Below, one piece after another: positions 45,550 through 63,406 of a stretch of DNA of 64,000 nucleotides. Made by a program: the position numbers and the translations under genes. Each line of letters starts with the position of its first letter. Within the stretch, counting starts at the first letter, position 1. The notes beneath the pieces are model-generated. The model saw only the letters and a program-made list of their open reading frames with translations. It was not told where the DNA came from and made no database searches. Source of the DNA: Negaprion brevirostris (Eukaryota); the NCBI GenBank assembly GCA_030324005.1, contig JARDVH010000084.1, forward strand, positions 91,434,129-91,498,128. The letters run 5' to 3'.

Positions 45550-45585
45550 CGCTCAGCTGTTGAAGTTTCTCGCATTTTTCGAGCT
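45550..45585 (-). CDS. 36-nt microexon ELEKCEKLQQLS
   Basis: ctttttaactttcag|AGCTCGAAAAATGCGAGAAACTTCAACAGCTGAGCG|gtgaga. Confidence 0.82.
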
Positions 45586-45956
45586 CTGAAAGTTAAAAAG
45601 CAGACTTAAGTGTAGAGTTCCAGAAATCCGGAATGGCCTTTCCATTTAAGCATAGTGCAGTTTGTGCCGTTCTTGGGAGAGATTAGAAATGAATTCTGGT
45701 GGTACATTTGCAGCCCTGACTTTTTCTTGCATTTATGCCAAGTTGTGTAAAAATCACATGTTTTCGGTTTCTGCCATTAGGAAAGTCACGTGGCAAAGTT
45801 TACAGTATAATCTTTTGATTTCGTATTACTTTGATGCATTTTATGTGATTGCTGCACTCCATGTTCAAACATCCATACTGCTCAGGCGGCCCTATATATT
45901 AAAACGGCTAAACATTGCATAAAGTAACTAGAATATTTTAAATTCCAGATTTTTAC

Positions 45957-45983
45957 CATGACTTGCATCTTGCAGTTGTGTCT
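45957..45983 (-). CDS. 27-nt microexon ETQLQDASH
   Basis: cattattatttcatag|AGACACAACTGCAAGATGCAAGTCATG|gtaaaa. Confidence 0.8.
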
Positions 45984-46484
45984 CTATGAAATAATAATGA
46001 AAGTAAGATAAATAAAGAGGGAAACGTAAACAGGTTGAATTTATATAACGATTTCAGTCTAACAAATCGTTCAATGGCACTTTTTAAACAATTATGAAAC
46101 AAAATACTACAGACGGACGATACCGTAGTTTTTTTAAAAAAAAATCCTTCCTGAAGGAATGGAAACAGCGAAGTACAGGAGGGAAGGGACGCGAGAATGG
46201 CAGACGGATGTATTTCAAAGGTCAGTGCCTTGACGGGTGGACCATCGCCTGTGGTGTGCTTAAAATTCGGAAGGGTATAGGGATTGGAAATAGCCGAGTG
46301 TAGTTATGAGGACGGCTGCAGATTGGCGCAATTCACACAGGTAAAGCGTAGAAACGCTTTGGAGGGTTCAATTAAGTGATCAACTAAATTAAGATTCTGA
46401 GATTTGCTTCAATCGAACGTGTTAAGTATGGCTAAGAGTGTTTTGAATGACTTCAAGTTTACACAAGGTAGCATTTCTTCTGGG

Positions 46485-46830
46485 GAGACAATGGCCAAGT
46501 GGTATTGTCGCTAGGCTATTGATCAAGAAACTCTGCTAATATTCTGGATTCGAATCCTACCACGCCAACCTGGTGGAACGTGAATTCAATGAAAAGTGGC
46601 TTGAAATTAATAATCTGCACGCAAGCATGAACGTATGATCGACTGTCGGAAAAATCCATCTGATTCACGAATGTCCTTTACGGATGGAAATTGGCTGCCC
46701 TACCTGGTCTGGCCTACTCTGGAACTCGAAAGGACTACTCTGGAGCCACAGCAATGTGGTTGACTGCCCTTGGGCAACTCAGGATGCAATAAATGCTGGC
46801 CAGCCAGCGACGCCCATGTCCCTTAAGTTA
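46485..46830 (+). mobile_element. tRNA-derived SINE of a second family
   Basis: Head tggccaagtggtattgtcgctagg...ttcgaatcctaccac; tail caataaatgctggccagccagcgacgccc; relatives at 42230 and 62025. Confidence 0.6.
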
Positions 46831-47169
46831 ATAGAATAAAACAGGACACTGGCTTGCTTAATGGCTAGAGCGTCCCGTTTGAAAATAGGAAGGTCTCTTT
46901 CCAATGTTACCTCTTTTCTTCGCAAAATTTTAATATGATGACAATTAGAGATGTGTGGAGCAAGCGAGCGAGCGAGAGATATATGGACCAGCCTGGAGTG
47001 CATTCGCATAATCCAATCTTGAGTTAACTAAATTATAATTGAAGTTTCAGCACCAGGTAAACTAAGAAAGTAACAAAGCTGGGTCATATTATGAAAGTGG
47101 ACCGAATGTATACGTTATATATGACGAAACATCATTGGTGAAGCAAGTTATTTAATTGCCCATTCTTAA

Positions 47170-48790
47170 GTGCTCATGAGAATATACTTCTCATGCGCTC
47201 ATGAGAATATACTTCTCATGGGCACTTAGGTCTACATTCTTAAATTGCAGAAACATATGTGGCGTAAGGTCAACCACAATACTGTTAGGGTGAGCGTGGT
47301 TTGAATCCACGACACTAAGAAACGGAACTATAGTTCCAAATGAGGACGGTGTGTGTGTTGGAACACGTCGCTGGCTTTTCCAAATATCTTCTAACCTGGC
47401 TATTCTCCGTGGCAGAATTTGCTGGTTTGTAAAGTGCTCACGGATGAGACTTAGTGAGTTGCTGCAGTACATCTTGTNNNNNNNNNNNNNNNNNNNNNNN
47501 NNNNNNNNNNNNNNNNNNNNNNNNNNNNNNNNNNNNNNNNNNNNNNNNNNNNNNNNNNNNNNNNNNNNNNNNNNNNNNNNNNNNNNNNNNNNNNNNNNNN
47601 NNNNNNNNNNNNNNNNNNNNNNNNNNNNNNNNNNNNNNNNNNNNNNNNNNNNNNNNNNNNNNNNNNNNNNNNNNNNNNNNNNNNNNNNNNNNNNNNNNNN
47701 NNNNNNNNNNNNNNNNNNNNNNNNNNNNNNNNNNNNNNNNNNNNNNNNNNNNNNNNNNNNNNNNNNNNNNNNNNNNNNNNNNNNNNNNNNNNNNNNNNNN
47801 NNNNNNNNNNNNNNNNNNNNNNNNNNNNNNNNNNNNNNNNNNNNNNNNNNNNNNNNNNNNNNNNNNNNNNNNNNNNNNNNNNNNNNNNNNNNNNNNNNNN
47901 NNNNNNNNNNNNNNNNNNNNNNNNNNNGGCGGTGGTGGAGGGAATGAATATAGAAGCTGTTAAATGGGTTAATAGCGAGGCAGGTTGCCTTGTTCCGGAT
48001 GGCATCGAGCTTACTGCGTGTGTTGAAACTGCACTCATCCGAGAAAATACAGAGTTCTCTATCACAGTCCATGCTTGTACCTTGGAGATGGATGACAGTC
48101 TTTAGGATGTCAGAAAATGAGTTAGTCTCCACAGAATGCTCAGCATTTGATCTGCTCTTGTAGTCACAGCATTTAGGTTGCTGGTCCAGTTCAGTTTCTG
48201 GTCAATGATAATGTCTGGATATTAAGCAATGTTCATGGCATTGAACGTGCAAGGGAGAAGGGTGGGTTTTTTAATGGAATGGCCATTGGCTCGCATTACT
48301 GTGGCGTATATGTTATATGCCAGTTATCAGCTGAAGACTGAACGTTGTCCTTGTCTTGCTGTGTTTGGAAAAGGTCTCCTTCAGAATGAATGGAGTCGTC
48401 ATTGCACAATAATCAGAATTCCTCGCGACTTCATTCATTCCGAAGCAACCCTTTTTCAAACACAGCAAGACAAGGACAACGAAAAATCTTCATCTGCGTC
48501 ATCAATGACTCTCCCTCCATCATAGGAAAACGATAGGCTAATACCCCTATCGTTTTCCGATGATTGGCTAATTGGCTAATACCCCTATCGTTTTCCGATG
48601 ATGGAGGGAGAGTCATTGATGACGCAGATGAAGATTTTTCGCTCAGGAAAATACCCTGAAGAATCGCAATCATGCTTCGCGATTGAACTAATTTACAGCT
48701 AATGGCAACAGCTACCCTGCTCTGTGGTGGGGATATGACTCCAATCACTGGTTTGTTTCTCCCATTAATTCCCATTGATTCCTTTTTGTA
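47170..48790 (-). mobile_element. LINE (L2/CR1 group) RT and 3' portion
   Basis: Minus strand KIFICVINDSPSII RT segment; same family as 59635-60600 (+). Confidence 0.6.
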
Positions 48791-49559
48791 GAGGACTTAT
48801 TCCATCAAATCGGTAAGACGTTTGAATGATCAAATTGACCAAGTGTCATTGGGCTTTGAATGGCCTAGTTTAACGTTCAATAATTTCCAGGGAGAGGGAT
48901 GGTGTCTGTAACTAGGGAATAGAATTTGGACCAAGGATAAAAATCAACATTTCAGTACTTGCAGTATTTAGTTGAATGAACGTTATGTCCCTGCAATTCT
49001 ATGTATTGGATAGACCGGAAATCTGGCAAATATAAAGCCGTTGGTAGAGGGGCTTTGGAGATAAATTGTGCACCCTGCGAAACGTTGATTGATCCTTGTA
49101 AACAGAAAAACGTTCAGTTCTGTTGATGACCATCGGGACGTGGGCAGTCACTGTCGATTATGATTAATATGGCAGCCGTGGCATTTCGGAATGAAGCATT
49201 TGAGAATTCCTGTCCCTCTTGAGTTCAAAGCACTGTGCAGCTTTAAGGTGAGCCTTTTAAAAAAAAAATGTTTGGCATTTTAAACTAGCTTTTAAGAATT
49301 CAATTCTATTTGAAATGATATACTCGTATATTAATAATATTACTTTTCACAAAAGTGGCACTAACGCCAGGATACAACAGAATGGCCGTTTTGTTTTACT
49401 GTGTTACACAAGGTACAACCTGCTGTAAATCAATTAGATTTCTGAAACGGTTGACGTTTTGTTATAGTTTTTAGGTTGCTCTAAAACTACGAGATTTATC
49501 GAAGTATTGACAGTGCTGGTGCAGAAAGAGAGTAAGCGTTTTTTGGTGCTTCATAGGCT

Positions 49560-50335
49560 TGGAGACACATAGCTCCAAAAAGGTCGCTGGGTGCATCGTG
49601 CCAAGCCCCGAACTATTCTAATCTCATTTTCCAGTACTTAGTAGCCTTAATAATATGGCTATTCAAGTGCTCATATCATTTCCTCTTAAATTCTCCGAAG
49701 GCTCCTGCCTCTATCACTCTTTGAGCTAATGACTTCCAGATTTCCACCACCCATTGAGTTAAAACTTTTTCCCCCTAAATCCTGCTCATTAACTGAAAAA
49801 TATGGCGCCTTGTTATTGAAACCTCTAGTAAGTGGAATCATGTTTTTCCGTTTACCCTATCTATGTCCTTTATAACTTTGTACTCCTCAATTATGTCCGT
49901 CTTCNNNNNNNNNNCTCCGTCAGCCATCTCTGCTCTAAGGGAAAAAAAACTCTAGCATAACCAGCGTCTCTTCATAATGAAAACGCTCCAGCATAGGCAA
50001 CATCCTGCTAAGTCTGCTCTGCAGGGTTTCCACTGTGATTAAATCCTTCTTATAGTATGACGTCCAGAAATGCACACAGTACTCGAGCTGTGAACTGACG
50101 CACATATTATAAAGCTTCATTATAACTCCCCCGCTCCTCTATCCTATCTATGCCTTGGCTAATGAAGATAAATATCCCTTATGCTTTTTATCCATATTTT
50201 CTATCTGTCCTTCTGCCTTCAGGGATCTATGCCCATGAACCCCGAAGTTCCTCTGATCTTATGTATTTCTGAACGTCCCACGGTTCCTTGCGTTTTTATC
50301 CTCCCAAAATGCATTATAGCACACTTTTCAGGTTT
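49560..50335 (-). mobile_element. CR1 3' portion
   Basis: QLEYCVHFWTSYYKKDLITVETLQSRLSRMLP. Confidence 0.8.
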
Positions 50336-51189
50336 AGTGACGTTTCATTAACTAAATTACTCTCTCCAGGGATACTTCCAGACATTGTAACTTTTTTTAC
50401 ATTATGGCTTACATACCTGCTACAAAACTATCACATTCTGTATCCATGAATGACCTCCTTCTGCACTGCAGGGATTCTATGATTCTGTTAAAAGAATGCT
50501 TTACTGAGCTGTCCTGAAACTATTACATTTATTATGCCTTGATATTTTTATGCGTAACACAAGAAATGCATTATTAACTGACGCAGCTCCTGTGGTGCTG
50601 TTGGAATTCTGAATGGATTGGCAATTACGATTGTTATTTGCACAGCTGATCTGATGTTGCATGACTTGCGAATGTGTTAACAAATTGTATTGCATGTTAT
50701 ATAGTAGCTCTAAAGACATTAAACTTCTGAAGACATTGAAAGTATTTTTCCGACTGATAAATGTAATATAAATGAACGCAACTGCTTGATATTCTCTGAA
50801 GCACAGGAGGGATTGTCAGTGGACAAATGATACTCGCTGTTGGGGTATAATGAGTGGGATGAATGGACAAAGAAAATGAGTGGTGGATAAAATTTTGGTA
50901 TAAAAATTGATGCTAAATTAAGTTAAATGAGACTTAGGGCATCGTGCTAGGTGGACTCAAGGACAATTTGTTCCACGAAGCCATGGGACTTTTGAATGGT
51001 ATTCGGAGCCTTGTATTAAGTTGTTCTTTCCCTACATACCAGCCATGACTGTAAAACTATATTCGGCAACCACTCCCTTCTCTCTCTCTTTACAGTAAAT
51101 TTTGTTTGCACAGCATGCAAGAAACAACATTTTCATTGCATGCTAATACATGTGACAATAATACAAAACAAATCAGAGTGTGGGTTGGG

Positions 51190-52555
51190 GCTGAATCTCA
51201 GGGAATCAGATTCGTGTTGGAGTTAATTTCCATTACTTAAGAAGGGAAGCAGGGATAATCGTATACATTACAGACCGGTCAGTCTGATGTCTATGGTGGG
51301 AAAGTTTTGAAGAAGACACTGGGGGGCGGGATATATGCACATTTGAAAGAAATGGAATAGCTAGTGACAGGTAGCATGGTTTTGTACGGGGAAGATCATG
51401 TCTCACCAACTTGATGGAGTTCTTTGAAGAGGAGTCAAAGATTATTGATGAGGGAAAGGCTGTGGATGTAGGTTATATGGATTTAGTAAGGCATTTGACA
51501 AGTTCCCACATGGAAGACTGACACAAAACTGAAATCACATGGGATTCGGGGTGGGCTGACTAGATGAATACAGAACAGGCTTGGTCCGAGGTGACAGAGA
51601 GTAATGGAGATCTGTCACTAGTAGTGTTCCGTGGGGATTATTGCTAGAATCGCTGTTGTTTGTAGTATATACAAGTATCTAGAAGAAAATGTTGGTAGTC
51701 TGATGAGGAAGTTTGTGGGTGACACGAAGGTTGATGGAGTTGCTGATAGAGCTGAGGATTGCCAGAGGATGCAACAAGATATCGATAGACTGGAGACTTG
51801 GGCACAGATGCATTTCGGAGGATCAAATTTCGGTGTGAAAATGTGAAGATACAGTGGGATCTGGGCTTCAGGTTCACATTTTCCTAAAAGGTGCAACACA
51901 AGTGTTCAAGGTGATTGAGAAGTTATGTGCCATGCTTGCCTTCATTGGCCATGACATTGAGTACACGAGTTGGCAAATCGTGCTGCAGCTATGTAAAACT
52001 TNNNNNNNNNNNNNNNNNNNNNNNNNNNNNNNNNNNNNNNNNNNNNNNNNNNNNNNNNNNNTAAGCTTTGAAAAGAGTGCAATGAATGTTCACCAGGATG
52101 TTGCCTGTTTTCGAGAGCGTTGACTATGAGGAGAGGTTGAATAAATTAGAGTTGTTGTCACTGGAAAAAACAGAGGTTAAGGGAAGACCTGATGGAGCTC
52201 TACAAAATTATGAGAGAGGTTGATATGATGGATCGACAGAAGCACTTTCCCAGGATGGAAGTGCCAATTACAAGAGCATCTCCATTTCGTGATTACGAGG
52301 GAGCAAAGGTTCAAAATGAGTTGGAGAAGTTTAAGGGCGATGCGTGGGGAAAGCTTTTCAAGCAGGTTGGTGGATGCCTGGAATGTGCTATCTGAAGAGA
52401 AGGAACATTAGCATCATCTAAGAGGAACCTGGATGTGTGTATGGAGAGGGAGGGAACAGAGAGATGCAGACTGAGTAAGGGCAGAAGTTTTATTTAGTGT
52501 AGTTAGAGCATCATGATCGGTGCGGGATGAAGGACTAAAAGTCGTTTACTTTGTT
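51190..52555 (+). mobile_element. CR1 RT and 3' portion
   Basis: YRPVSL, HGFVRGRSCLTNL, KFVGDTK motifs. Confidence 0.85.
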
Positions 52556-52775
52556 CTTGGTTGTTTGCTCAGCTTTGAAGTTGTGAAAGTGTACTTTGAA
52601 TAAATATTGCAGGAAATCCATTACGACATATTTCATTTGACAATATTGCGCTCATTTAACGTTTCCACGTTTTTTTTTCTTCGCACTCAGCTTGTAGAGA
52701 TATTATTCTTATCGGAATGACAGTCCAATAAAATACACATATATGTATGATAGAACCATTATCTGTATATTTCAC

Positions 52776-52811
52776 CTAAAGTTTGTACGGTTTGTTTCAG
52801 TTTATTCATTT
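52776..52811 (-). CDS. 36-nt microexon EMNKLKQTVQTL
   Basis: tttcttctttaatctttcag|AAATGAATAAACTGAAACAAACCGTACAAACTTTAG|gtgaaa. Confidence 0.82.
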
Positions 52812-53194
52812 CTGAAAGATTAAAGAAGAAACATTTGAGATTTTTTACTGTCTTGCACATTTATCGATTGCCATTAATTACAGTAAATTTAAGTCAAACA
52901 ATTAACAGGAAAATTATGTGCATCATGTTTTCATGGACTTTGCAATGATCAGCAGCGACCTTTTCCCAGGAACTGATAACATGGACAATAGGCACCACCT
53001 TCGTATTCTATTAACTTCAAGTCAGGCAACATTATGTAACTTCCATTCTACGCCCGCAGTGAGCATTCACTTGACTTGAAGCTTCAACAATGTTGAACAA
53101 GGCAACAATATCTGGCCAAAGTAGTTTGCTTGTTTAGGACTCCACACATAAAGATTTACTTTCTCAAATATGAGTTATAGAGGATTCAATTTTA

Positions 53195-56100
53195 AGGAGA
53201 ATAGACGGGCATTTCCGTGGACAGAAACGACACTACAGGATAGTACGATGCCTACCTTGTTCTAGGATGAAGGATGTCTCAGAGCTGTTACGGGGCATTT
53301 CTGAGGGGGAGGGTAAACAGCTTGTGGCTGTTGTACACATCGGGAACAATGACAAAAGTAAACAAATGGGTGAAGTCTGAAAAGCAGAATTGAGGGAGTT
53401 CACAATAAAATCAAGAAGGTTGTGAACCCAGGATCATTCCTTGTGCCATGTACTATTCGGTTTAAAAATATCAGGATATATTGGATTGTTACGTGGTTCA
53501 GCACATTCGGGGAGGATTTCCGATTCCTGGTGTACTTGAGCCGATTCTGGGGAAGGTGGGAACAGTATAAGCTACACCAGTATAAGCTAAATCAGTTACA
53601 CCTGGGAAGGGCCAGGGCTGATGTCTGAGCGCTTGCTAAAGTGGTTGGAAAGTGTTTAGATCAAAATGGCAGGGGAATGGGAACCTATGCAAGGAATCAG
53701 AAGAGGAGGAATCATGGTAAAAAACAAAGACAGAGAGGGAATAAGGAAAAGTGATTGGAAGAGAAAATAAGGGCTAGATTCAAAAAGTCATTCACTGAAA
53801 AGTATTCGGAACATGGTAAGTAATGTTGACAAGACGAACTGAAAGGGTTAGCGCCATAATGCGTGGAGCATTGGCAATAAAGTGGATGATTTAATCATGC
53901 GAATAAATGCAAATAGATATGATATCGGGAGCGGCAAGGTGGCACGGTGGATAGCACTGCTGCCTCACAGGTCAGAAACCGGGTTAAATTCTAACCTTGG
54001 GTTACTGTCTGTGTGGAGTTTGCACATTCTTCCCATGTCTGCATTGTTTTCCTCCGGGGGTTGTGGTTTCCTCCCACGGTTCAAAGATGTGCGGGTTAGG
54101 TTGATTGGCTGTGCTAAAAAATTACCCAGGTGTCAGGGGAATTAGTGGGGTAAATATGTGGGGTTACGGGAATACGTCCTGGATGGGGCTGTGGTCGGTG
54201 CGGACTCGATGGTCTGAATGGTCTCCTTCTGCACTGTTAGGGATTCTGTGATTCCATAATATAGCCGCGATTAAAGAGACATAGCTGCAGGCTGACCACG
54301 GATGAAAACTGGACATCCAGGGGTATTCAGTTTTAAGAATGGCGGGGAAGTAGAATTACTAGATAAAGGGGAAATTATACATCATGTTGAAGGAAGTTAG
54401 CTACGGCGATGTGGAATCGATATAGCTAGAGCTAAGAAACCCCAAGAAGCACAAAATGTTTGCAGCGGTTGTATATAGATCCTGGATTGTTGTTGTGATG
54501 TTACAAATTACATTAAACAGGAAATTAGAGATGCATGTGATGAAGGAACATCTTTAATAATGGGTCAATTTAACTTGCATATAGATATGGGGGCCACTCA
54601 TCTAACAAAGGGCAAAGCCCCAAAAGCTATTGGCATTTGCTACCAAAATTAAACCTGTTGGACTTTAACCTGGTGTTGTGAGACTACTTAATGTGAACAA
54701 CTGAATACATACCTTGGTTCTGTCTTAACAAAGGAGGATACACATAAATTACTAGAAACGTTGGGGAACACAGGGTGTAGATGATGCGTATTGAAGGAGA
54801 TCATATGAGTGGAGAAATGGTGTTGGGTAAACTGATGGGGATGAAGGACAATAAATCCCCAGGGCCTGATAACCTACATTTCAGTGTAATTATAGAAGCC
54901 ACCCAAGAAATAATCGATGAATGGCTGGTCATGTTCTAAGAGTGTATATACTCTGTAACAGTTCCTATAGATTAGAATGTAGCTCGTGGAAACCAAATAT
55001 TTTTAAAAAGGAGCTAAATAGAAAACAGTGAATTATAGACCAGTAAGGCTGACGTCAGCATTGGGGAAAATTCTAGAATCTATTATTAATGATTTTATCG
55101 AAAAACACTCTGAAAGCATTGACAGTTTTGGACAGAATTTAAGAAAAGTAAACATTGCGTGGCAAAGCTATTGAATTCCTTGAAGATGTAGCTGGTAGAA
55201 TTGATAAGTGGGAGACAGTGAATGTAGTTAATTTCGACCTTCTGAAGGCTTCTGATAAAATCCCATGTAAGAGATTTTAATTTTAAACTTCATTGGATTG
55301 AAGTTAATGCTTCAAGGTGGATAGAAAATTGGTTGGCAGATAGGATCCAAAGAGTAGGAAGAAATGGGTATTTTCCGAAATGGCAGGCAGTACCTACTGG
55401 GGTGCTGCAGAGATCAATGCTGGGACCCCAACTATACACGATATATATCAATGATTTAGACGAGGGAACTAAATGTAGTGTCTTCAAATTTGCAGATAAC
55501 ACAAACTGAGCTGTGAGGAGAATTTACAGATCTTTTAGCCTGATTTGGGCAAGTACAGTGAATAGCCAATACAGTATAACTTGAATATATGTGAGGTTAT
55601 CCAGTTTGAGAGCAATAAAGGGAAGGAAGATTACGAGCTGAAGGGCCATAAATTAGAAGAGGGGAATGTACAACAAATCCTACATACCCTCATGCATCAC
55701 CCACTGAAGTTAAGCATGTAGGTGTAGTAGGCAGTAAAAAAAGCATATGTTAATTTGGCCTTCGTAGTGCAGATTCAAATACAGGAAAGGGATTTCTTGA
55801 TGCAATTATTCAGCGGCTTGGTGAGGTCACACCAGGAACATTGCGTGAAGTTTTGGCCTGTTCAGCTGAGGAAGGATGTTCTTGCTTTGAAGAGAATGTA
55901 AGACGGTTTACGAGACTCATTCCTGGGATGGCAAGACTGACAATATTGGGATATTGAGTTAGTAAGGATTGCATTCACCAGAGTTCGGAGTAATGAGGCT
56001 GGGGTGGGGCGGGAGGGTACGGTGCTGGGGTGGGGGAGGAAAGGAGGGGATGGGGTTGATGCTGGAGGGCCTCCATTGAAACAGATGAAATTTGATGAGA

Positions 56101-56692
56101 TAGATGAAAACAACGACATTCCCACTGGTGGGAGTGCCCAGTCTGCTGAGAATAAGCGTAAACCATGTACGGCCGAGATGAGGATACATTTCTTTACGAG
56201 AGTTTGAGTTCACTTACTAGTGTCATAAGTAGGCTTACATTAACACTGCTACAAATTCATTGTGAAATCCCTGAGTCGCTACACTCCACATCTTGTTCGC
56301 ATACACTGAGGGAGAATTTTAGCGTGGTAAATACACCTAACCAGCACGTCTTTAGGACATTAGGAGGAAGCCAGAGCAGTCAGAGGAAACCCATGCATTC
56401 ACAGGGAGAAAGTACAGACTCCGCAAAGACCGTTACTCAAGCTAAGAATCAAGCGTGTGTCCCGAGCGCTGGGCAGCAGCAATGCTGTGTGACTGCAGTG
56501 ACAACTATGTCACTGTGCCGTCTGTTGTCAGAATTTGCTACCACAGAATGTAGTGAAGCCAAGCAATTGTATGTTTTCGGGAAAAATTCCGATATAGCAC
56601 TTAGGGGGAAGGGATTAAAGGGTCTGTGGTGAAGGTGGGGGTCAGGCATGATCATAATGAATGGCGAAGCAGCCTCGAAGGGCCGAATTTCC
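53195..56692 (+). mobile_element. Internally deleted CR1 including ORF1 esterase remnant, with nested V-SINEs (53930-54255 +, 56215-56510 -) and a Penelope fragment (54595-54693)
   Basis: CLPCSRMKDVSE...VVHIGNND (SGNH-like ORF1); LYTIYINDLDEGTKCSVFKFADNT RT motif. Confidence 0.8.
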
Positions 56693-57414
56693 NNNNNNNN
56701 NNNNNNNNNNNNNNNNNNNNNNNNNNNNNNNNNNNNNNNNNNNNNNNNNNNNNNNNNNNNNNNNNNNNNNNNNNNNNNNNNNNNNNNNNNNNNNNNNNNN
56801 NNNNNNNNNNNNNNNNNNNNNNNNNNNNNNNNNNNNNNNNNNNNNNNNNNNNNNNNNNNNNNNNNNNNNNNNNNNNNNATTTTATCAGTCCTGATTCACT
56901 TTAGGAAGTATTGTGGCCTTGAAGAGTGTAGTAAAAATGCAAACCTTCCCTTTTCCGATTCCTAAGGTACAATATTTGAAACTTTGTTGCATTGTTTACA
57001 GCCTCAACTTTGTGTTGGACTGCAGCTGACCTACAGTAACGGGGCACAACTTCACATGAATTGCAAAATCTTACTGAGAGTTTTTTGTCTCTTCCAATGG
57101 GTTCAATCCTTCATTATTTCCATTGAAACGGCATAGTTTTTGTGAGTTACGAATTGCAACTTGAAAATGGCATCTTATTTGCATTGATTTACATATTTGG
57201 ATGATAAAGGAAACCAATAGCCTTCCTGGCAAATGCATTGAAAATACTGTCGATTTTTTATACAAACCCTTCCGCAAACAGTTTGGACGGCAAATAACCA
57301 ACTCATATAAATTCCGCTGCCATATAAATTATAAATTGCAGATATATTTACCCTTGGCGTAACACAAAGGCACGAGATTTTAACAATTAATTGTGGTATT
57401 CTACTAATATATAC

Positions 57415-57441
57415 CTGCAGTTTTGTTCGAAAGTCGATTTT
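57415..57441 (-). CDS. 27-nt microexon ENRLSNKTA
   Basis: ttttgcattttgttttag|AAAATCGACTTTCGAACAAAACTGCAG|gtatat. Confidence 0.8.
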
Positions 57442-57874
57442 CTAAAACAAAATGCAAAATAACAAAATCTTAAATATGATAATCATTCTTGTTGTCATAA
57501 GAATTCGGCATCACTGGCAGGATCAACATTGATTGAAAATCTCCAATTGGCTCCTGATAGGTCAAATCATTTGCTTGTACAGTTGCAATTGATGGCGCGT
57601 GCTGAGACTCACTGTTCCTTTATTGAAGGGGCGGGGGAAAGGGCGGGAGTTTCATCCCAGTGACGTGTCCAATTGACTGTACATTTCACGGCACATGAAT
57701 AGAACGAAATGCAACACGTAAAGACAATGTTTACTTATTATCGCTTATTTTGATGACTGCGCAATTGAAATGGATCATTTGTCAATAGTAAACTGTTGCT
57801 TTACAGAAGGCAAGTTCAGCAAAGAACGTCAAGCTTTAGAGGTATATAAATTAACGTTTGATGATTTTGCTCAC

Positions 57875-57910
57875 CTTTATCTTGCTGATTGAGAAGTGCA
57901 GCGTTCAATT
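57875..57910 (-). CDS. 36-nt microexon ELNAALLNQQDK
   Basis: tttttgttttgataatag|AATTGAACGCTGCACTTCTCAATCAGCAAGATAAAG|gtgagc. Confidence 0.82.
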
Positions 57911-58362
57911 CTATTATCAAAACAAAAAGAAGAGATTTAAGACTGAAAAAAAAATCAGTTAATGATGTCTTATAGCAAAGCGTCCAGAAACACATAAACA
58001 ATACTTTAGGTACATGTCGGGTCTAATAGGGGAAGGTAAAACAGCACAAAATTAATTTGATTTGACAAGAATATTATATTATTTATGAATTTAATGCTAT
58101 TGCATTTTTAGAAGAAAGTCAAAACATTTGTTAAATGTCGAAACATCGTATTGAGTTTAAACAATTGATATGAACGATCTGGATTTTATTTGGTGCACAG
58201 GTTTCTGGAAAATGAATTAATCAAGATAAAAATATATGCAGCAATCTGCACGGAATAATAACATTTCTACGCAATCACTTGCATAATCAGTAATTTTGCA
58301 TGATATTAATAAATTAAATGGCAAGCAAATGCATTCATCATTAATCAAAATCAATGAAGTAC

Positions 58363-58389
58363 CATTGTCTTTGGCAAGCAGTTGCTGTT
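58363..58389 (-). CDS. 27-nt microexon (E/K)QQLLAKDN
   Basis: gttctttttcag|AACAGCAACTGCTTGCCAAAGACAATG|gtactt. Confidence 0.75.
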
Positions 58390-60818: not shown

Positions 60819-60845
60819 TTGTGACTTCACGAAGTTTTTGAAGTT
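60819..60845 (-). CDS. 27-nt microexon ELQKLREVT
   Basis: ttatcttcttcatcag|AACTTCAAAAACTTCGTGAAGTCACAA|gttagt. Confidence 0.72.
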
Positions 60846-60987
60846 CTGATGAAGAAGATAATTTCAATTAGGTTGCATGATCCATTCTCTGAATGTAGAG
60901 ATAAAGAGCAACAAGCATATTGCCCAATATTAAAATATAGCACATGAACAACAATTCCACCGATTGGAAAGAGATTAAAGACATTAC

Positions 60988-61014
60988 CTGCCCTCAGTTG
61001 GATCAACCTCTCAT
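60988..61014 (-). CDS. 27-nt microexon DERLIQLRA
   Basis: cattccattttgcag|ATGAGAGGTTGATCCAACTGAGGGCAG|gtaatg. Confidence 0.8.
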
Positions 61015-62794
61015 CTGCAAAATGGAATGTTTTATTGGAATGTAATTGCTGATTTAGATAAATATTCAGAAATAAAGGAAAACAGTAACCCAACAATGTT
61101 CGCTTTTCAGTTCAATCATTCGAATCAACTCATGTTCCGTAGCATTGAAGGCCATACAACTGAAAGCAAATTATGCTCAAGTACTTTGAGTCATTTTGTG
61201 TCTACTATTTTTTCGAACAGTCAGTCCCTGAGCTCCACCAACCTCCAGGTGAAGAAACGCTTCTCTTCCGCTAGCAACTTGTGTGTCTTTACCATGAATC
61301 GACTTCCCTTGCTATGCATCCCTCAAGAAAAAACGAATGAATAGGCTTTATGAGGCATTCTATCCAGATAATTCATGATTGTACGTGTTTAGTTAGACTT
61401 GTTCTTCATCTATAGTGTTACAAAACCATATTCCGATCCCGTGCAAGCTTTCCTTATCCTTAAAACATATCAGTAAAGCAAAAACCCTCGTAATATCATT
61501 TCTATTCCTTCTAATGCAATCAAATCTTTCTTATCTTGACGTTCCAAAATTGCATCCAGCTGTTGAATTATTGCCAAGCCAATATTTTATGTTGTTTCAC
61601 CATAGCTTAGAAGCTCTGACATTCGTTCTAAGACTCATGTACTGAACGCAGGTTGCCTCGTAACTTCTACGTTTTCCAGGTATCAGAAATGTGTATATAA
61701 CCAGCATGCTACCTTTTTGATTTAATCTTCCTATTATCATATCATTTACCGTGGATTCAGTTGCTTGTCAATCTTCTTCAAATGTATTGCTTCAGATTTC
61801 TTTGATATGAATTGTCTTTATCACCGTCCACCCACGTGTCTTGTTCAATGATATCGTCCCTCAACTTACAGAACTTTGCTTCATAATCAAACACGCCTTC
61901 AATTTGCACGTTATTTGAAGTCGTCTTGATCATACTATCTGAGGGACGTTGGGCTACCGCCAGGTGAGGAACATGTTATCTTTTTTCTCGAACAAAACCC
62001 ATGATTTGCATGCTAGATGATATTTTCACTGGACCATTAATCTAGTGGCCAAGGCTATTACTCAACTTCCACCACGGCAACTTTCTGTTAATAATTTGGA
62101 ATTAAATGTGAGTCTCAGCAATGGTGACCATTAACTTGTTGCCAATTGTCATAATTACGTTCACAAACATCCTATCGGGAAGCAAATCAGATCTGTCGGC
62201 AAAATACGTAAAATAAAAATGAGTAATGCTCTGATCCAAGGCAAGTGCGTCTCATTCTTCAAGAACTAACAGTGTGAGTATTTGGACAGGGTAACAAGTA
62301 CGAACACAAAGAAGTTNNNNNNNNNNNNNNNNNNNNNNNNNNNNNNNNNNNNNNNNNNNNNNNNNNAATTGTTTTTTCTTTGTTGAGATCATTAAAAGTT
62401 GACATCCATTTCAGAATGTCGACAAGCCTCTCTAACAACGGAAATGAAGTGCAATCAAATATATACGTGATTGCATTGAAAATCTTAAAAGGTGAAATCA
62501 TGGCGCCCAGGATGAGAAAGGAGGAAAACACAAATTCAACAATGTTGTGTGTTCAAAACTTATTTTTAAAAGATCTGCTGCAAGTGATTACCGTGCTATG
62601 TGAAGCAAAACATAAATTTGGAGGAATCGGTTGGAAAAAATGACAGGACAGCATTATCTTAACAGAAAGGTTCCTAGAAAAAGGGCTAAACTTGGATGCA
62701 ATTACGTTCACGTTATACTTAGAAAATGTAGAAGGTTTGAAGAGAGACACAAGCATTAATATAGTTCTCAGGGTTCCATATATGCATATTACCG

Positions 62795-63110
62795 GGGGCG
62801 GCACGGTGGCACAGTGGTTAACACTGCTGCCTCACAACACCAGGGACTCCGTGTTCGGTTCCTGGCTTCGGTCATTCTCTGTGTGGAGTTTGCACATTCT
62901 CCCCGTGTTTGCGTGGGTTTCCTCCGGGTGCTCCGGTTTCCTCCCACAGTCCAAAATGTGCGGGTCAGGTGTATTGACAATGCTAACGTGCCAGAGGCAC
63001 TAGCTAGGGTAAGTGCATGGGGTTACAGGGATAGGGGCGGGGTGAGAATGTGGTCGATGCAGACTCGATGGTCCGAATGGCCTCCTTCTGCACTGTAAGA
63101 CTCTATGATT
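62795..63110 (+). mobile_element. Relatively young full-length V-SINE (HE1-like)
   Basis: gggcggcacggtggcacagtggttaacactgctgcctcac; near-consensus V-domain; CR1-type tail. Confidence 0.9.
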
Positions 63111-63205
63111 TAAGGCAAAGGCTAATAGACGGGCCACTTCAGTTTTTCGGCGAAGTTTGCTTGTTAGTTATGTAATACGTTATTAACATATTCCGCAGGA
63201 CTTAC

Positions 63206-63232
63206 CATCGGTTTTGTATTTCGTGTCCTGGT
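63206..63232 (-). CDS. 27-nt microexon DQDTKYKTD
   Basis: ttattgctctcactcag|ACCAGGACACGAAATACAAAACCGATG|gtaagt. Confidence 0.75.
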
Positions 63233-63379
63233 CTGAGTGAGAGCAATAATAAAAAATCATCTTAGCCACAATATAAAGCGTAGAATCAAGGTTCAGTATT
63301 GCTTTTGTCACTTCATTCATCCTTTAACAATACAGGAGGAAAGAACGATTTATTACTTGGAGAAAAAAAATCTTTTTAC

Positions 63380-63406
63380 CTTTCTTGGCGTCAGTGAGCT
63401 TTTTTT
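63380..63406 (-). CDS. 27-nt microexon EKKLTDAKK
   Basis: gatgtttctcaacag|AAAAAAAGCTCACTGACGCCAAGAAAG|gtaaaa. Confidence 0.78.

Follow-up and report, generated by a model that had tools for sequence, protein, structure and literature searches.

How can a long coiled coil be assembled from very short exons and still keep its heptad register? This question is raised by a stretch of 64,000 nucleotides (nt) from the shark Negaprion brevirostris (contig JARDVH010000084.1, here C84, 91434129-91498128; genome of 2.69 Gb), which we refer to as the window. A C84 position equals 91434128 plus the window coordinate, and coordinates outside the window continue its numbering, with k for thousands. A preliminary description had reported six consecutive exons of alternately 27 and 36 nt in the window, and had proposed a pair of such exons as the unit of duplication, splicing and register. 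Our analysis identifies the six segments as conserved exons from the middle of a gene of about 389 kb, designated gene B. The statistics show that two complementary exon classes alternate, an order that would carry the coiled-coil register. Gene B, which lies near the major histocompatibility complex (MHC), probably codes for a cytosolic protein with some 1,200-1,500 residues, predicted to be a segmented helical rod ending in a B30.2/SPRY domain, with its register kept by this two-class exon grammar.

The six exons are given below in order of transcription, with their recurrence in a tandem duplicate (gene A) and in the Scyliorhinus torazame protein model XP_072329363.1; the exon classes are described further below.

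58363-58389, minus strand: 27-nt micro-exon, phase 1, class Y; recurs in gene A and XP_072329363.1
57875-57910, minus strand: 36-nt micro-exon, phase 1, class L (core at 2, 5, 9 and 12); recurs in gene A and XP_072329363.1
57415-57441, minus strand: 27-nt micro-exon, phase 1, class Y; peptide identical in XP_072329363.1
52776-52811, minus strand: 36-nt micro-exon, phase 1, class L; recurs in gene A and XP_072329363.1
45957-45983, minus strand: 27-nt micro-exon, phase 1, class Y; diverged from the ortholog, flanks match gene A
45550-45585, minus strand: 36-nt micro-exon, phase 1, class L; the predicted helix of the ortholog model stops inside this exon

The reported 27-36-27-36-27-36 alternation was borne out by splice sites and phase, by gene A and by XP_072329363.1. 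All six exons are of phase 1-1 and have a pyrimidine tract with an AG acceptor and a G/GT donor; the introns between them measure, in order, 452, 433, 4603, 6792 and 371 nt and contain 706 undetermined bases (N). In gene A, about 367 kb upstream, the six exons recur with lengths and order unchanged, and residues 377-439 of XP_072329363.1 show a 9-12-9-12-9-12 run with nothing interposed. Chaining matched 5 of the 6 exons to this model; the fifth exon has diverged, yet its gene A copy is close to the model. Six further splice-like candidates were found in the introns, none of which overlaps a segment shared with gene A or appears in XP_072329363.1. A scan of 1.664 Mb for phase-1 coiled-coil-like exons gave 199 candidates on the minus strand (97 of 27 nt, 55 of 36 nt) and 36 on the plus strand (4 of 27 nt, none of 36 nt). 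The six exons are not due to chance, because candidates of 27 and 36 nt concentrate on the minus strand (152 of 199 versus 4 of 36). Two aligned sets of contigs behaved like genomic DNA, without any joints; in the set from a relative, 1 of 36 substitutions fell within 90 exon bases and was synonymous, a count too small to carry weight. The residues reported for every seventh position, L,L,Q,L,M,V,L,L,Q, are correct. The heptad signal of the six exons is modest: 82 of 10,000 shuffles of the residues attained its power at period 3.5, and the peak lies at 3.41.

The following features define gene B and its exons around the six.

1-64000 and beyond both window ends, minus strand: gene B, an exon chain from the ATG exon to the B30.2 exon
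+150,210 to +150,302, minus strand: ATG exon (ATG at +150,288), identified by exon chaining
60819-63406, minus strand: four 27-nt exons just upstream of the six (63380-63406, 63206-63232, 60988-61014 and 60819-60845), a 27-27-27-27 run that breaks the length alternation
782-34824, minus strand: 14 further curated micro-exons of 27, 24, 27, 27, 36, 27, 27, 33, 36, 27, 24, 27, 27 and 27 nt, identified by exon chaining
-238,009 to -238,526, minus strand: intact terminal B30.2/SPRY exon, identified by domain match

From the ATG exon to the B30.2 exon, gene B spans 388,827 bases (7.8% N), along which the exon candidates chain collinearly on two shark protein models. Collinear chaining was used in place of loose exon-to-ortholog matching, which was too noisy and gave many plus-strand matches. 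Curation, in which chain members scoring below 12 were dropped and 12 strong-splice exons were added by hand before counting, left 105 micro-exons: 63 of 27 nt, 25 of 36 nt, 11 of 24 nt and 6 others. The window holds 24 of these. The S. torazame model covers the upstream part of the gene. The micro-exon array ends downstream at about -231k and is followed by the terminal exon at -238,009. The relative that matches this exon best, a 945-residue catshark protein, has a coiled coil and a SPRY domain (62% identity in the domain). Since the curated exons sum to 3,039 nt, the protein has presumably at least about 1,200 residues; it would reach about 1,500 if the two ortholog models were laid end to end. 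Tandem Repeats Finder reported nothing relevant.

Exon classes were assigned from each exon's own sequence only. The 36-nt exons (class L) are hydrophobic at positions 2, 5 and 9 with frequencies of 0.84, 0.92 and 0.72, and the 27-nt exons split into class X (core at 2, 5/6 and 9; n=21) and class Y (core at 4; Lys at 7 in 28 of 42). An L or X exon alternates with a Y exon at 61 of 73 junctions, a value that none of 20,000 shuffles reached (shuffle mean 36.8). The preference was also seen without ortholog guidance (40:15; 15 of 20,000 shuffles), in gene A (28:8) and in distant paralogs from +880k to +1,264k (23:6; 49 of 20,000 shuffles). Alternation of lengths is weak (39 of 73 junctions; shuffle mean 30.1; 142 of 20,000 shuffles), and gene B contains 31 adjacent 27+27 pairs; a 27+36 pair is thus not the general unit that had been assumed. 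Its arithmetic holds for the class pair L+Y, which comprises 21 residues or three heptads, while X+Y comprises 18. Heptads and hendecads are established coiled-coil geometries and, applied to X+Y, would likely make it a heptad plus an 11-residue hendecad, i.e. a built-in stutter.

A class-free junction test points in the same direction: the heptad fit was 0.604 at natural junctions (n=73), 0.505 with one exon skipped (n=60) and 0.603 with two skipped (n=50). Hence the earlier claim that skipping a pair keeps the register, while skipping a single exon keeps the frame and breaks the register, is supported gene-wide. The six exons alone are not decisive, with a fit of 0.56 for all six, 0.33-0.56 after single skips and 0.42-0.67 after pair skips. 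In the mechanism that we propose, entry exons (36-nt L and 27-nt X), with core residues at 2, 5 and 9, would lead into position 4 of the exon that follows, and return exons (27-nt Y), with core at 4 and Lys at 7, would lead into position 2. Any exon could then be gained or skipped in frame, and the register would be kept by alternation alone. Selection appears to have preserved the alternation during duplication of single exons, pairs, triplets and whole genes.

The idea that the duplication unit is a two-exon cassette stood in part. An additional 21-residue 27+36 unit is present in S. torazame, and in this genome a 36+27 pair occurs twice in tandem near +631k/+637k; single 27-nt exons (about 45 copies), recurring 9+9+12 triplets and whole genes have been duplicated as well. 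The roughly 45 tandem copies of one 27-nt exon lie on the minus strand from +762,000 to +879,000 (C84 about 92.20-92.31 Mb), inside an upstream paralog; this exon is rich in Asp, Arg and Met and not coiled-coil-like. The array is a recent single-exon amplification. Splicing in obligate pairs, with 27- and 36-nt exons co-included or co-skipped and transcripts varying by three-heptad units, would agree with the behaviour of heptad fit on skipping one or two exons, with the 21-residue duplications and with the distance of just 370-450 nt between several 27/36 neighbours. RefSeq isoforms of the electric ray, catshark and chimaera members, however, show 10 distinct internal deletions of 9, 9, 7, 6, 9, 12, 11, 23, 8 and 8 residues, none of which amounts to 18 or 21 residues. 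These counts derive from automated models, none spanning the orthologs of the six exons, and cover internal deletions as opposed to alternative N- and C-termini; several of the deletions lie in linker exons. Obligate pairing is therefore unsupported and we regard it as unlikely. Single-exon skips would represent local kinks or splicing noise.

Structure predictions are consistent with a rod. In single-sequence, single-chain AlphaFold models, ortholog residues 353-432 form one helix (predicted local distance difference test, pLDDT, about 72-82), and the catshark protein forms a chain of long helices with short breaks. Fourier peaks at 3.47-3.54 in 6 of 7 ortholog segments, and at 3.35 in one, show the core periodicity of heptads or hendecads. 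Pfam gave a sub-threshold match to the cGMP-kinase zipper (18.4 bits, cut-off 35). The helical rod would pair as a parallel coiled coil, and the terminal B30.2/SPRY domain would bind targets.

A rod of this kind might also be the cytoplasmic tail of a membrane receptor of the butyrophilin or BG type, with signal, Ig and transmembrane (TM) exons hidden in assembly gaps. Genes A and B each have a gap of 4-5 kb at the matching place upstream of their last shared segment (at +533k and +166k), the best PDB match of the B30.2 domain is that of BTN3A1 (E 2e-14), barely ahead of TRIM21 (3e-13), and in a butyrophilin of the same genome the TM exon is followed by a 27-nt phase-1 exon. The logic of phase-1 heptad micro-exons also resembles that of BG genes, as far as the accessible text of PMC5938342 and PMC4046983 describes them. 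Against this, no Ig motif was found in the array (1.664 Mb scan). None of 15 family models has a segment of TM strength (maximum 19-residue hydropathy 1.48, controls 2.22 and 3.17), and no TM-like exon was found upstream of the three ATG exons of the cluster, where 15-27% of bases are N, with a rule that does find the TM exon of the genome's butyrophilin. The multi-isoform models of catshark, electric ray and chimaera begin without Ig or TM, and the B30.2 domain falls into a separate clade (see below). A search for V-set domains placed none in the cluster (150 of 927 candidates scored, a weak result). A hidden membrane receptor is thus quite unlikely.

The preliminary description had likened the exons to the leucine-zipper stalk of CD23, in which 21-residue repeats are encoded on single 63-nt exons. 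The symmetric phase-1 exons and the 21-residue period would fit an extracellular stalk of a CD23-like lectin. The comparison fails because the gene ends in B30.2/SPRY and not in a lectin: the coil runs into B30.2 both in the genome and in the catshark model, and none of 36 Lectin_C matches lies in the cluster, the nearest being about 1.56 Mb past its end. No TM segment or signal was found, and a type II anchor was likewise found neither in the 15 models nor in the partly gapped DNA upstream of the three starts. We assign a CD23-like stalk a negligible probability.

Gene B belongs to a cluster of rod-B30.2 genes of about 2.2 Mb, in which gene A is the duplicate next upstream.

+523,074 to +187,328, minus strand: gene A, a tandem duplicate that matches gene B exon by exon and also has the six
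+187,328 to +187,819, minus strand: decayed B30.2 exon belonging to gene A, with a stop after 53 codons, as read from the sequence

Flanks of genes A and B are about 70-80% identical, and the ratio of nonsynonymous to synonymous substitution rates (dN/dS) over 54 exons is 0.44. Gene A is without the last third of gene B. With micro-exons under purifying selection and a decayed B30.2 exon, it is possibly a functional headless rod. The start exon has three genome copies at +150k, +523k and +1,109k (+150,288, +523,074 and +1,108,848). Its first 15 codons are highly conserved, without any difference between genes A and B; among them is an acidic tyrosine motif, which we take to resemble an SH2-binding site. 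About 2 kb upstream of the ATG exon, genes A and B share a non-coding segment of 300 bases that is 70% alike (+151,986 to +152,291 and +524,618 to +524,918), a candidate promoter or first exon.

Micro-exons reach +1,263k in contiguous sequence. Further upstream, 19 of about 76 stretches of ten kb between +1,264k and +2,024k were read, and roughly half of those read hold micro-exons, as far as about +1,972k. All micro-exons from -231k to about +1,972k lie on one strand, only one intact B30.2 exon was found in this span, and the ATG exon could be entered in frame, all of which would suit a single transcription unit of 2.2 Mb, transcribed across internal start and terminal exons, whose product would be a several-thousand-residue rod bearing one B30.2 domain. 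Gene boundaries are, however, marked by the three start-exon copies and the decayed terminal exon, and gene A repeats gene B exon for exon. A search for relatives of 1,655-4,725 residues found none, which is weak evidence. One unit of this size is very unlikely. The next B30.2 exon upstream belongs to a family paralog at +2,027k (C84:93.46 Mb), and paralogs were also found on contig C121.

Several points weigh against gene B as a cytosolic rod gene with a two-class grammar. The class labels derive from a hydropathy rule devised for this analysis, and class alternation is non-significant in the +530k to +760k block (10:6) and in the repeat block (7:5). The p-values of the junction test (2e-4 and 5e-4) are optimistic because junction pairs overlap. 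Some differences between the Narcine and catshark orthologs remove one 27-nt exon. The second core track of the six exons, K,A,K,K,L,L,A,C,S, is a weak one, the dN/dS of the six-exon run alone is 0.68 between genes A and B, and global AlphaFold confidence is low (predicted template modelling scores, pTM, of 0.23 and 0.26). Exon joining in gene B is derived from genomic collinearity and automated models. Since the ATG exon carries an acceptor, at least one upstream exon was missed; in all three copies phase 1 stays open through the 14-nt leader, and the DNA upstream of the starts is 15-27% N. The function is drawn from analogy only.

By this analogy, the protein may, as a tentative proposal, serve as a spacer or scaffold of roughly 150 nm if extended, which would hold two B30.2 heads for innate-immune or trafficking partners, much as a butyrophilin or BG tail minus the membrane part might do. 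A more far-reaching and doubtful proposal is that a two-letter exon alphabet, together with exon duplication and regulated splicing, yields combinatorial rods that vary in length and kink position, with or without the B30.2 sensor, and with gene A as headless partner or decoy. If true, a splice-programmed molecular ruler of immunity would be encoded beside the shark MHC in a 2-Mb cluster. Independently of function, the locus represents a large, mis-annotated gene family adjoining the shark MHC. It allows one to ask in a natural setting whether splicing obeys the coiled-coil register, and offers a testable rule by which micro-exons can build a coiled coil without one-heptad exons via two complementary classes. 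This study contributes a two-class grammar for the register, a 2.2-Mb cluster of several genes with a headless duplicate among them, and evidence against obligate paired splicing.

MHC class I matches occur on C84 at 81-88 Mb, the nearest 3.2 Mb from the end of gene B; a class II search gave no match anywhere and is uninformative. The surrounding parts of C84 are rich in TRIM genes and contain at least one true butyrophilin.

C84:99564944-99573160, plus strand: complete-looking butyrophilin with IgV, IgC, a 22-nt exon, a TM exon, a 27-nt phase-1 exon and B30.2
C84:89.59-89.64 Mb: six tandem single-exon C-type lectin matches between the MHC class I matches and the cluster
-317,212, minus strand: RING protein encoded on a single exon and hydrophobic in a segment at its C-terminus; this is the next downstream gene that was observed; presumably similar to ligases of the RNF183/RNF186 type
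C121, about 8.78-8.88 Mb: two further family B30.2 genes that face each other, with 27/36-nt exons ahead of one of them; C121 may be paralogous to the MHC region

On the tested features, the gene family is not a member of BG, BTN or TRIM. The B30.2 tree comprised 51 sequences: the family, two controls from the same genome, and those matches that combined a single B30.2 with an Ig or a RING motif. Here 12 family sequences lie on one side of a branch with 100/100 support, versus 8 BTN- and 31 TRIM-labelled sequences; the labels were assigned by motif, the root is at midpoint and the bootstrap is unsettled. The family B30.2 domain thereby appears as a clade of its own that groups with neither butyrophilins nor TRIMs, and the tree decides neither for a BTN nor for a TRIM ancestry.

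With TRIM-B30.2 proteins (TRIM21, TRIM39, TRIM69) the family shares a cytosolic coiled coil followed by B30.2 and a scaffold full of TRIM genes, and databases label its members 'TRIM39-like' or 'zinc-binding protein A33-like'. In contrast, the array gave no RING motif (1.664 Mb scan) and no B-box (0 of 99 matches inside the array; 150 of 289 candidates scored), and exons of the neighbouring TRIM gene measure 96, 23 and 116 nt and have other phases. In TRIM genes, an exon that we take to be of 27 nt precedes B30.2. The micro-exons might conceivably stem from it, but the neighbouring TRIM gene has a 1.6-kb gap at this place, and the accessible text of PMC4378998 states no size for the exon.

Guinea pig enterophilin-1 is a leucine-zipper protein of the cytosol that combines many heptads with a B30.2 domain. 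It is mammalian and much shorter, and its likeness to the shark gene is one of general layout. Its existence and its binding to SNX1 are documented in the accessible part of PMC13749957.

Relatives in the databases are chondrichthyan models (XP_038671249.1, XP_072329363.1, XP_072329362.1, XP_069775418-28, XP_038672306-10 and XP_042191566-8), orthologs or paralogs with the same 27/36-nt phase-1 exon units and a B30.2 domain of the family clade. Their annotations carry unrelated names (golgin-like, trichohyalin-like, A33-like) and describe fragments, none of which spans the whole gene. No published description of the family was found in the accessible literature, including the available text of PMC12841164 and PMC7348870; most subscription journals and the supplements, where shark MHC papers may list these loci, were outside this search.

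Butyrophilins (BTN3A1 and relatives) also show a heptad region followed by B30.2, and the 27-nt phase-1 exon after the TM exon in this genome's butyrophilin is a further likeness. According to the accessible text of PMC12841164, they lie near the MHC in cartilaginous fish too. They differ in that IgV, IgC and TM were not found in the shark gene, which has about 1,000 rod residues versus a few heptads and a B30.2 domain of a separate clade. Chicken BG proteins have coiled-coil tails encoded by 13-37 exons, each 21 nt long, and a soluble BG tail ('zipper protein') regulates actin-myosin, as stated in the accessible parts of PMC5938342 and PMC4046983. As far as these sources go, both systems form tandem MHC-linked clusters, build the coiled coil from numerous phase-1 micro-exons in which the split first codon stays out of the core, and vary in exon number between genes; gene A, like BG, is without an intact B30.2. 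BG has one-heptad 21-nt exons behind Ig-V and TM, whereas the shark gene has more than 100 exons of mainly 27/36 nt in two classes (1 of 105 curated exons is of 21 nt), and gene B keeps B30.2, with no Ig or TM found. The BG/butyrophilin design would thus extend to cartilaginous fish, from a chimaera form of 230 residues to rods of more than 1,000 residues.

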